Source: a plasmid. Taken from it: a stretch of 4,234 bases of DNA. The first letter of the stretch is position 1; each line of letters opens with the position of its first letter. A program made the translations under genes and the position numbers. The notes beneath the pieces were generated by a model. The model saw nothing but the letters and a program-made list of their open reading frames with translations, did not search any database and had not been told where the DNA came from. This document shows, one piece after another, positions 1,523 to 4,188 of the stretch. Location: the NCBI RefSeq assembly GCF_056746865.1, contig NZ_JBWKMP010000009.1. One strand, 5' to 3'.

Positions 1523-1529
1523 GTGTTAC

Positions 1530-1618
1530 GATTCCTTCCAGGTTATCGACCGACATCGCCCCTGTATCTTCGTGAAAGTCTTGGCGGATCTACACGAATT
1601 TCAGGGGCGTTTGTTTTT
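1530..1618 (+). ncRNA. Predicted antisense copy-control RNA (ColE2 RNAI-like) complementary to the rep mRNA leader; the 5' end is uncertain
   Basis: Established: ColE2 Rep synthesis is controlled by an antisense RNA (about 115 nt) complementary to the rep leader. Seen: a + strand intrinsic terminator (1557-1618) in the right position and orientation. Candidate -35 TTGAAG (1505-1510) and -10 TACGAT (1527-1532) are weak. The boundaries are inference. Confidence 0.4.
1557..1618 (+). terminator. Long imperfect stem-loop followed by TTTGTTTTT on the + strand; probable RNAI terminator and major antisense stem-loop
   Basis: Seen in sequence: outer stem CGCCCCTG (1557-1564) pairs with CAGGGGCG (1602-1609); inner stem TTCGTG (1569-1574) pairs with CACGAA (1593-1598). 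A U-rich tract follows on the + strand at 1610-1618; the minus-strand side has no U-tract. Confidence 0.45.
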
Positions 1619-1677
1619 CAGTCGCTTACACTACACCCAACGGCAAATCCTGTCGATCCTTCCCGAAAAACCGATCC

Positions 1678-1705
1678 ATTTACCATAACTCCTGTTGTAC
1701 GTACC
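1678..1705 (-). other. XerC/XerD site-specific recombination core (cer/psi-like multimer resolution site): GGTACGTACAA-CAGGAG-TTATGGTAAAT
   Basis: The minus strand reads GGTACGTACAA (XerC arm, 10 of 11 vs cer GGTGCGTACAA), CAGGAG (6-bp central region), TTATGGTAAAT (XerD arm, 11 of 11 vs cer). Reference sites dif, cer and psi are recalled from memory. Confidence 0.75.
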
Positions 1706-1804
1706 CCTTAAAACGCTCTCAGACGCGTTCTGACGCAAAAAACACAAAAAGACAAGAAAACACCAGGCCAAACCAGAAAAACGCGTCAGAATCGTTTTCA
1801 GGGG

Positions 1805-1968: not shown

Positions 1969-4188
1969 TCACATACTCATGCCCCGGTAATGTCCGGGGC
2001 GTCGTTGTTGTTGCCTGTGCTGTTCGTCCCGCTTCCATTCATGCCAGGTCTGATTAAATCCGAGTTGACGGAAGAGATAATCCGGCATCTCTTCCGGTTT
2101 GTGGACAGCAGCCAAAAGCCTGTCATGATGGCCTTTGAGCCGGAACTGCATCAGGTGCGGTTCCGGTGGGTACGGAGTATCCGCATCATGGTTTATAGCT
2201 TCTCCGTAACCTGCCAGGCATACCCCGTTCTCCGTGATGGTGCTGACTATCAGATGACTGTAATCCGGCGACGGAAGCGCAAGAACGGGACGCAGCCCGT
2301 CCTCCTGACGCACAAATCCGACAAGCACTTCCTCCGGCCCTTTGCACAACAGCAGATTCAGCGTCCTGCTGTTTCGCTCTGTCGAAAATACAACGGGCAT
2401 GAGTTGCTCCGGTGCCGCATAAGCGGTGACGTCCACCCGGTGCGCAGACGGCAGCGGAGAGGCTACGGGCCTGCGGTCGTCGCTGAAATAAAAATTATCC
2501 GGCCAGTGATGCGGCAGCGCCGGAAAACCGTAAGAGGGCCACCCCTGGCGCATCTGTTCCAGTACATGCCGGACCGTCGCACCGGAATACATTCTCACAC
2601 GCTCAGGCCGCGCCATCGTCTCATGAGATTCTGGCATTCCCTCACGTATATCCGAGACCATCACAGCCCCGCCTGGCGACAGGTAAACATTCACCGGGTC
2701 ATGAACACTCTGGGGGTAATGCGCCAGCTCATCACCCCATACCGTGAATTCTCCGGCTCTGTTACTCAGCATCATGTAGCGGGTTATCCTGCCCGTTCCC
2801 GGCTCTCTGGCACGCCCCAGCCCCGTAATAACCCCGGCTAATGCCGTTTCACGGCTCAGGCGATGGTTATCATGGTGTTTCAGCCGTGCGTCATATTCCT
2901 GTTCCTTCCGGCGCGCTTCCGCTTCGGCTTCCTCCCTGCGCCGCTCCGCTTCCCGTGCTGACAGTTTTTCTTTCAGCTCTGCCATTCCCGGCGAAATCCA
3001 CGTATTCCACTGCGTTTCAAAGGCCTGACGACGGGCGGGAATGTCCCGTTCTTTCACGGCCCTGTAGGTGCGGCGAAGAGATTCAATCTGTTTCTCGAGT
3101 TTCCAGAAGCGGAGTTGTCTTTTGCGGTATTCCGGTTCAGCCCATGTCATCAGGGGAAGCTCTGACAGGATGGACGCTACCGGACGGGCTTTTCTGAGTC
3201 CGGTCATCTCTTTTTCGAGAATATCCCGCTCTTTCACCAGCGCATTCCCCTCACGTTTGATGTCGTTTGCCTTCCCGTTCATCGCCACGAACTCCGGTGT
3301 CATCTCCCATGCGTTCCCGCATTCCTGCGGCAGTGTGGCAATGAATTCCCGCAGGGTATCCGCTGAGGCATTCGCGGCGGGAATGGTCAGATTAAGGGCT
3401 TCCGCTGCACGACGTGCGGCATCGCTGAGTTCCCGTTTCCGCACGTTCTCCTGTACCTGGATGACTGCCAGCCTTGTGCGGGAAACCTGTATTTCCAGGT
3501 TAAGGCTGTTAATCAGGCGGTTCTGCTCACCGCGTTCTGTTTCCATGCCCCGTTTTTCCATCGCACAGGCAGCCTTTCCGAGGTGAAGGCCCGGCGCTTT
3601 CTCCAGTCCCTGACGCTCGTATGAACGATGGTCTATCTCTTCCTGGTAGCCGGCGTTCGCAAGCGCTCTGTTCGCATGGTCAGCCCATGATGCGCGCCAC
3701 GTCTCGGCGAGTGCCCGGTCGTTCCAGTCCCTGACCTTTCCTGCGAATCCCGTTTCCCCGACAGCTCTCGTGGTCAGCATGATGTGTGCATGGGGGTTGG
3801 TCCGGTCCATATGATGGAACGCCACATCGGCAATCATGCCCCGACTGACAAAGTTTTCCCGGACAAAAGCGAGAACGGCCTCCCGTGCGGCCTCGCGGGA
3901 AATCTCACGGGGAATGGCGAGTTCAATCTCCCTTGCCAGCTGGGAGTTCCGGCGCTGTTCGGCTTTCTCGACCGCATTCCAGAGAACGGAACGGTCACCA
4001 CACCAGGACGGTGCATTCACAGGGGTGAGAATGACCGCATCATCAACGCCGCGTTTACGGGTGTAATCGTGGGTTAATCCGGTACGGTCATCGGGTATGA
4101 CAGAGCCGGAACGGTAGGCAGCAGAAGCAACGGCACTGTAGCCGTTTTTTCGCGAAATGATTTTCATGCTGAGATGATAAATCGCCAT
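1969..4188 (-). CDS. mobA: MOBQ-family relaxase MobA (MobA/MobL-type), 739 aa: N-terminal relaxase domain, charged coiled-coil linker, about 295-aa C-terminal domain of unknown function
   Basis: The N-terminus MAIYHLSMKIISRKNGYSAVASAAYRSG closely resembles RSF1010 MobA (MAIYHLTAKTGSRSGG...), with the catalytic Tyr at residue 25 (codon 4114-4116). His-rich metal-binding motif HHMDRTNPHAHIM is at residues 125-137 (about 3778-3816). The charged linker spans residues about 405-440. The C-terminal domain (about 1972-2856) was not recognized. Confidence 0.9.
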   Translation of the reverse strand: MAIYHLSMKIISRKNGYSAVASAAYRSGSVIPDDRTGLTHDYTRKRGVDDAVILTPVNAPSWCGDRSVLWNAVEKAEQRRNSQLAREIELAIPREISREAAREAVLAFVRENFVSRGMIADVAFHHMDRTNPHAHIMLTTRAVGETGFAGKVRDWNDRALAETWRASWADHANRALANAGYQEEIDHRSYERQGLEKAPGLHLGKAACAMEKRGMETERGEQNRLINSLNLEIQVSRTRLAVIQVQENVRKRELSDAARRAAEALNLTIPAANASADTLREFIATLPQECGNAWEMTPEFVAMNGKANDIKREGNALVKERDILEKEMTGLRKARPVASILSELPLMTWAEPEYRKRQLRFWKLEKQIESLRRTYRAVKERDIPARRQAFETQWNTWISPGMAELKEKLSAREAERRREEAEAEARRKEQEYDARLKHHDNHRLSRETALAGVITGLGRAREPGTGRITRYMMLSNRAGEFTVWGDELAHYPQSVHDPVNVYLSPGGAVMVSDIREGMPESHETMARPERVRMYSGATVRHVLEQMRQGWPSYGFPALPHHWPDNFYFSDDRRPVASPLPSAHRVDVTAYAAPEQLMPVVFSTERNSRTLNLLLCKGPEEVLVGFVRQEDGLRPVLALPSPDYSHLIVSTITENGVCLAGYGEAINHDADTPYPPEPHLMQFRLKGHHDRLLAAVHKPEEMPDYLFRQLGFNQTWHEWKRDEQHRQQQRRPGHYRGMSM

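Follow-up and report, generated by a model that had tools for sequence, protein, structure and literature searches.

The rep leader of the plasmid analyzed here very probably carries the copy-number control element (IncA-type) of a ColE2-family replicon, in which an antisense RNA, RNAI, would act on the leader of the rep mRNA. The hairpin on which the original prediction was built is confirmed and its ColE2 interpretation is supported; the element is already known, and is present here in a short form with one main stem-loop. As the mechanism is known from ColE2-P9, where it was worked out in the 1990s, the finding adds no new biology, and what is new is only the placement of the promoters by comparison, together with an incidental observation on how the element relates to the IncB/IncI module.

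The window, by which we mean the whole 4234-base stretch that was analyzed, corresponds, after rotation, to the complete circle of plasmid p6_020022 from E. coli SCEC020022 (NZ_CP032885.1), which types as a Col156 replicon and as MOBQ. The plasmid class MOBQ4-2 with ColE2-like initiators, Col156, has been described previously (PMC6856555). Three genes are present in the window:

133-408, + strand: small open reading frame without a Pfam match
614-1522, - strand: rep, encoding a ColE2-type initiator primase of 302 aa (open reading frame list and Pfam)
1969-4188, - strand: mobA, encoding a MobA/MobL relaxase

The assignment of Rep to the ColE2-type initiator primases draws on its Pfam domains, with Replicase (PF03090, E 5.8e-45) accompanied by PriCT_1 and a C-terminal HTH as in other proteins of this type, on 82% identity over 263 aa to the Rep of pColE2-P9 (NZ_KY348421.1), and on a match (E 7e-49) to PDB entry 3vw4 ‘Rep’, the one solved Rep fragment in the PDB. 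The rep start codon occupies 1522-1520 on the - strand, and more than 1,200 PLSDB records match the window's leader.

Several further features lie around these genes. Just beyond the rep stop, at 583-625, the - strand has a terminator-like hairpin, AGCGCC-TTTTC-GGCGCT, followed by TTTTTT, and beside it the - strand of about 590-625 reads ...AGCCTTATCAGATAACAGCGCC..., which we take to resemble the ColE2 origin. On the other side of rep, about 45 nt upstream of its -35 element, 1678-1707 on the - strand (GGGGTACGTACAACAGGAGTTATGGTAAAT) has the look of a putative cer/psi-type XerC-XerD core; its parts are GGTACGTACAA, a 6-bp center and TTATGGTAAAT. The right arm of this Xer-like site is invariant in several leaders that otherwise diverge, and a cer-like site in these plasmids is mentioned in the literature (PMC6856555). 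A perfect 10-bp inverted repeat, CTCACGGGAC...GTCCCGTGAG, is found at 1901-1935, 35 nt beyond the mobA stop, with GCGTTTTCTGG following on the - strand. This repeat is probably the mobA terminator, and in that role would keep read-through transcription from reaching the Xer site and the rep promoter.

The hairpin of the rep leader and its preferred strand

An imperfect hairpin had been predicted at 1557-1609, in terminator configuration on the + strand only and antisense to the rep leader, and each of these statements holds. The hairpin is 53 nt long, with a + strand folding energy of -24.8 kcal/mol (z -5.36); 200 dinucleotide shuffles averaged -11.9, and none of them (0/200) did as well. Its outer stem pairs CGCCCCTG (1557-1564) with CAGGGGCG (1602-1609) and its inner stem pairs TTCGTG (1569-1574) with CACGAA (1593-1598), the imperfection being due to two internal loops and an 18-nt apical region. 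On the + strand the T-run TTTGTTTTT abuts the stem, whereas on the - strand AAAAACAAA comes before the hairpin and AUGUCGGUCG after it, that is, an A-run stands before it and a U-run after it is absent. With the rep AUG at 1522 on the - strand, the whole structure is antisense to the rep leader. Its main parts are as follows:

1557-1609, + strand: main stem-loop of the predicted RNAI, with the - strand complement as the putative target stem-loop of the rep mRNA (fold, covariation)
1581-1586, + strand: loop motif UUGGCG, closed by GUC/GAU (sequence; match to the loop of Rfam PK-repBA)
1610-1618, + strand: T-run TTTGTTTTT, the putative RNAI terminator (sequence reading, conservation)

Nine-mers with at least eight T occur four times in the whole window when both strands are counted, and the hairpin abutting the run at 1610 is by far the strongest (-24.8 kcal/mol vs -17.3, -14.8 and -5.6 kcal/mol at the other three). 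A generic terminator scan of the window did not report the hairpin at 1557-1609, because that scan takes loops of 3-8 nt only. The terminator form on the + strand, together with the scan's finding of no other strong + strand terminator between 408 and 1557, would also suit a structure that stops + strand read-through, for example from the gene at 133-408, and so insulates the rep promoter and the Xer site, rather than forming the 3' end of a dedicated small RNA. We regard such a role as extremely unlikely, since 1.1 kb of DNA antisense to rep separates the hairpin from the end of the nearest upstream + strand gene, a conserved promoter pattern lies about 30 nt upstream of the hairpin, and the same arrangement is found in plasmids with unrelated flanking genes.

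The reading of the hairpin as part of an antisense RNA was examined further by comparison. The comparison set comprised 31 Rep-relative loci from species-representative genomes, several plasmid records and pColE2-P9, and 25 leaders were aligned, with Rep identities from 98% down to 53%. The flanks diverge freely in this alignment and a small set of positions is invariant. Every family member examined has a GC-rich stem and then a T-run on the antisense strand, and four positions of the A-run, the complement of this T-run, are invariant in 25/25 leaders.

Among 20 antisense RNAs, 93.8% of alignment cells fall in standard pairs and six of the 15 pairs show compensatory change, compared with 36-51% of cells pairing and at most one pair with two-sided change when the partners were slid by one to three columns as a control; the alignment behind these figures was N-padded and fitted to the structure, and therefore leans towards it. 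This alignment replaced one made with MAFFT, in which the window clade lay one column out of register and the RNAalifold consensus was weak. The antisense-strand hairpin is stabler than its mRNA-strand complement in 20/20 members, by 0.5 to 13.3 kcal/mol, because what are U-G pairs in the antisense RNA turn into C-A mismatches in its mRNA complement, although the sequences are related and do not represent 20 independent events. The same strand asymmetry is seen in pColE2-P9, at the sixth basal-stem pair. Taken at the sequence level, the asymmetry points to selection on the fold of a + strand transcript, as would be expected for a terminator hairpin.

These comparisons bear on whether the hairpin might act merely in cis, as a structure of the rep mRNA leader that affects stability or translation, with no functional antisense RNA and an incidental T-run. 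In favor of this reading, the - strand version also folds well (-23.8 kcal/mol, z -4.83), and compensatory changes preserve both strands equally. However, the T-run after the stem is kept on the antisense strand in all 25 leaders, the mismatches created by the U-G pairs favor that strand throughout the 20 members, and an invariant TGnTAnnnT stands on the same strand at the right distance upstream. Moreover, the same geometry in pColE2-P9 reproduces the size that its RNAI reportedly has. A purely cis-acting hairpin is therefore very improbable, and the preferred reading remains that of a stem-loop shared by an antisense RNA and its target.

Candidate promoters and the predicted antisense RNA

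The original prediction had left both promoters unplaced, and it is here that it can be extended, as positions that are invariant across the family allow the 25-member comparison to place a rep promoter as well as an antisense promoter. The proposed elements, together with the adjoining features of the two transcripts, are:

1651-1656, - strand: candidate rep promoter -35, TCGACA, with GACA invariant in 25/25 leaders
1628-1633, - strand: candidate rep promoter -10, TAGTGT, with the T, the A and the last T invariant in the 25 leaders and variable inner bases
1540-1556, + strand: predicted 5' segment of RNAI, with a small hairpin GGUU-AUC-GACC (fold)
1533-1539, - strand: GGAAGGA, ribosome-binding site of rep, placed 10 nt before its AUG (sequence reading)
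1524-1532, + strand: candidate extended -10 of the RNAI promoter, TGtTACGAT (TG at 1524-1525, hexamer at 1527-1532), from invariant positions
1505-1510, + strand: candidate -35 of the RNAI promoter, TTGAAG, within rep codons 5-6, with the TTG invariant or nearly so

On the rep strand the invariant positions read GACA...TA---T, a -35/-10 pair with a spacer of 17-18 nt among the leaders and of 17 between TCGACA and TAGTGT in the window. GACA-N17-TAnnnT occurs once in the window, where 0.17 occurrences would be expected by chance, and the pattern is present in 25/25 leaders. Going by spacing, the rep mRNA is predicted to start near 1621. The AAGGA found in the Rfam PK-repBA consensus and in relatives lines up with its ribosome-binding site, GGAAGGA.

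On the opposite strand, TTGAAG and TGtTACGAT are separated by 16 nt in the window. The corresponding pattern, TTG-N15-17-TGnTAnnnT, is found in 24/25 family members and once in the window (vs 0.04 expected by chance), and TG, TA, the final T and one A are the only positions from the hairpin to the AUG that are invariant in the 25 leaders. The antisense strand of the Rfam PK-repBA consensus carries the same arrangement, as TTG-N16-TGtTATAAT. An RNA from this promoter would be expected to start near 1540 and to run to roughly 1617, giving a predicted RNAI of about 78 nt in the window; the predicted antisense RNAs across family members are 72-82 nt long. Such an RNA would be fully complementary to the rep mRNA from about +4 to +82, and the mRNA complement of its 5' segment (1540-1556) ends beside the ribosome-binding site. 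Most of the relatives that were folded are likewise predicted to have a small 5' hairpin. At the level of sequence, then, two transcription units converge and overlap at the rep leader, and the leader contains a countertranscript gene with a promoter and a terminator of its own.

Each hexamer of the two promoters matches the consensus at only 3-5 of 6 positions, and a generic promoter scan of the window reported neither promoter, its 9-of-12 match rule being too strict. The antisense -10 overlaps the spacer from the ribosome-binding site to the AUG, so that part of its conservation could serve translation. Conservation is, however, lower at the ribosome-binding site than at the antisense -10, an argument for selection on the promoter.

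Two other candidates in this region were set aside. An alternative antisense -10, TAAATT (1487-1492), which would give an RNA of about 118 nt, was dropped, as a 34-nt insertion in pColE2-P9 explains the 115 nt reportedly observed there. The only small leader open reading frame of the window, of 31 aa at 1461-1556 on the - strand, begins at an AUG that immediately follows the hairpin and extends over the rep start in a different frame. As a leader peptide it would have no usable ribosome-binding site, its ATG is missing in the related leader L002 and it is not conserved, and we conclude that it is probably not a gene.

Comparison with pColE2-P9 and the proposed control of rep

The leader of the window is homologous to that of pColE2-P9, and this alignment lends support to the interpretation of the region as a control of the ColE2 RNAI type. 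Starting upstream of the rep -35, the two leaders match base for base up to the end of the A-run and the five bases that open the stem's 5' arm (CGCCC). The loop core (CCGCCAAGA on the mRNA, UCUUGGCGG on the antisense RNA) is also common to both, as is the block ATCGTAnCACATGAGCGCCG, which takes in the spacer between ribosome-binding site and AUG, the start codon, the first rep codons and the antisense -10. The resemblance to pColE2-P9 RNAI (IncA) extends to the Rep family, the rep promoter, the mRNA 5' end, the stem base, the T-run, the antisense-strand loop core UUGGCGG and an antisense promoter pattern overlapping the rep AUG. The differences consist of a 34-nt indel and the inner stem: in pColE2-P9 the main stem-loop and the ribosome-binding site are set further apart by 34 additional nt that are absent from the window, and the inner stem and the loop flanks are not the same, which probably changes incompatibility specificity.

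The extra 34 nt of pColE2-P9 (L043, about 2990-3045) form a second stem-loop, CCGCGUUUCCC-GAU-GGGAAAGCGCGG, and pO26_10153_4 (L036) has the same long form. The window's leader also aligns with that of the E-group nuclease-colicin plasmid CP122746.1, which is of the short form with a one-base loop variant, CUUGCCGG, so that the short form belongs to the classical ColE2-related group. From the homologous promoter to the T-run, the pColE2-P9 RNA is predicted to be 108-114 nt (about 113) long, compared with about 78 nt for the window. The RNAI of ColE2-P9 is said to have been put at about 115 nt by Takechi et al. in 1994, and the agreement of our prediction with this length supports the promoter assignment. 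The RNAI/IncA determinants of pColE2-P9 and ColE2-related colicin plasmids are reportedly the work of the Itoh laboratory, from 1993-1994.

Two other antisense systems share parts of this plan. CopA/CopT of R1 (IncFII) likewise has a countertranscript to the rep leader, begins with loop-loop contact, inhibits translation and uses a GGCG-type loop, but R1 has a leader peptide (tap) with translational coupling and another initiator, and no sequence similarity between CopA/CopT and the window was detected. ColE1 RNAI shares its name and its role as an antisense regulator of copy number, whereas its target is the primer precursor RNAII rather than a rep mRNA and ColE1 has no Rep protein; the Rfam scan of the window gave no match to Rfam RNAI.

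A dead relic of the replicon is carried by hundreds of large IncF conjugative plasmids, of which pSF-166-1 is an example:

About 2400-2718 of pSF-166-1 (L037), corresponding to window 1582-1798: relic, unannotated in the record

In this relic rep has been fused, from near codon 40, straight onto the hairpin loop by a deletion that took out the 5' arm along with the antisense promoter and the start of rep; still in place are the 3' arm, the promoter of rep and the Xer-like site upstream.

In ColE2-like plasmids, rep is controlled post-transcriptionally by RNAI, a plasmid RNA that binds the rep mRNA at its 5' untranslated region and keeps it from being translated (PMC6856555). The translational block in our model is adopted from that published account. 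In the window, rep mRNA would be made from TCGACA-17-TAGTGT on the - strand, starting near 1621, and would carry a leader of about 100 nt with the stem-loop at 1609-1557 as its main feature. A constitutive + strand promoter, TTGAAG-16-TGtTACGAT (1505-1532), overlapping the rep start codon, would produce the RNAI countertranscript, whose layout we infer to be a short 5' segment, the stem-loop at 1557-1609 presenting UUGGCG, and a U-tail. The UUGGCG loop is the presumed site of first contact, meeting the mRNA loop CGCCAA before pairing would spread to a full duplex, the end of which (1540) would lie immediately upstream of GGAAGGA (1539-1533). Such a duplex would keep ribosomes off the rep start site, and the supply of Rep, and hence initiation at the origin, would fall as the concentration of the plasmid, and with it that of RNAI, rises.

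The predicted duplex stops just short of the ribosome-binding site. As the paired region 1540-1617 ends beside GGAAGGA without covering it, RNAI might instead be made and lead to cleavage or decay of the rep mRNA, for example by RNase III, or alter a distant leader structure needed for translation; later ColE2 work is said to have found that upstream leader structure matters for Rep translation. We consider both forms of this explanation improbable, if less so than the alternatives discussed above. The duplex end is 2-3 nt from the ribosome-binding site, inside the 30S contact region, the sequence indicates no specific cleavage site, and the ColE2 mechanism is given as prevention of translation (PMC6856555). 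A block of rep translation remains the form of control that we favor, and it may come about by direct exclusion of the 30S subunit, through an effect on leader structure or with help from cleavage of the duplex.

Relation to the IncB/IncI-type leader

A permissive scan matched the window at 1487-1610 on the - strand to Rfam RF01089 PK-repBA, the leader of the IncB repBA operon, at 27.3 bits (E 0.0045), below the gathering score of 45 bits, and the hairpin alone matches PK-repBA on the + strand at 22.8 bits, with a loop that matches the model. Scores in the ColE2 clade (window, L002, CP122746.1 and CP082708.1) are 23.7-27.3 bits. On the rep-sense strand, scores of 34.6-51 bits are obtained for relatives whose Rep identity is 42-66%, five of which are at or above the threshold of 45 (Yersinia, contigs tied to two metagenome-assembled genomes, Mixta, Xenorhabdus and Aeromonas veronii). 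The leaders that match PK-repBA come from Xenorhabdus, Yersinia, Pectobacterium, Mixta, Edwardsiella pEI2 and Aeromonas, and PK-repBA-like leaders are located at:

L005-L030: about 130 nt upstream of rep
L035: 456-566
L038: 337-459
L039: 365-486

The distant relatives have an mRNA loop UUGGCGG and, within a leader open reading frame, a CCGCCAU able to pair with that loop. The frame itself is of 16 codons, opens at an AUG aligned with the rep AUG of the window and ends over a TTG/GTG rep start. In the window clade both the leader open reading frame and the distal CCGCCAU are absent, and pColE2-P9 is likewise without the extra codons; rep of the window uses the very AUG that opens the leader frame of the relatives, and no leader peptide is coupled to it. 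The mRNA loop of the window is CCGCCAAG, the reverse complement of the UUGGC(C/G)G type. No complement of the mRNA loop was found downstream, TTGGCG occurring on the - strand only at 566-571, and a pseudoknot in the window was rejected, as both the loop complement and the distal CCGCCAU are absent.

Both the sub-threshold match of the window and the scores of its relatives, which reach or approach the threshold, could suggest that the window uses an IncB/IncI-type switch, in which a leader peptide and a loop-distal pseudoknot activate expression and the antisense RNA blocks the pseudoknot. With a score below 45, no conserved leader open reading frame, an mRNA loop that is not UUGGCGG and neither pairing partner in the window sequence, we find such a switch scarcely credible here. 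Judged by the three defining features that were tested in its sequence, none of which it has, the window is not a PK-repBA member, and its leader looks like a simplified relative of PK-repBA.

The likeness to the IncB pMU720 RNAI/repBA leader and to the ColIb-P9 Inc RNA/repYZ comprises one long stem-loop whose hexaloop is UUGGC(G/C)G, an antisense RNA some 70-80 nt long with a U-tail, and a promoter TTG-N16-TGnTAnnnT overlapping an AAGGA-N9-AUG block. In contrast to those systems, the window has no leader peptide and no distal pseudoknot partner, and UUGGCG is on the antisense RNA rather than on the mRNA. This last difference reflects a change of loop orientation between clades, in which the apical loop (window 1575-1592) is reverse-complemented when compared, for example, with L013: the window clade and pColE2-P9 have CCGCCAAG on the mRNA and CUUGGCGG on the antisense RNA, and all more distant relatives have CUUGGCGG on the mRNA.

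To our knowledge, the initiator protein of IncB/IncI plasmids is unrelated to the ColE2-type Rep. Most ColE2-family plasmids (Xenorhabdus, Yersinia, Pectobacterium, Edwardsiella, Aeromonas) keep the full module of UUGGCGG loop, leader peptide and CCGCCAU. It may be that the ColE2/Col156 control region is a stripped-down descendant of an IncB/IncI-type (PK-repBA) module that serves an unrelated initiator elsewhere, a proposal for and against which we see the chances as evenly divided. The ColE2 clade appears to have lost about 48 nt, a deletion that would have brought the ribosome-binding site and AUG of the leader peptide directly against rep, and recombination between the stem arms could be the source of the loop flip. 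A literature search that did not include the primary ColE2 papers found no paper linking ColE2 replicons to the pseudoknot switch. If the proposal is true, one control cassette has been exchanged among replicons of unrelated types and can work in either loop orientation once the pseudoknot is not needed, and the observation of a simplified, loop-flipped derivative would be of modest interest for plasmid evolution.

For the plasmids themselves, the element would set the copy number and one incompatibility specificity of very common small plasmids of E. coli, Shigella and Salmonella, and would account for which small Col156-type plasmids can coexist. Its correct placement aids annotation, as this RNA is marked by neither RefSeq nor Rfam.
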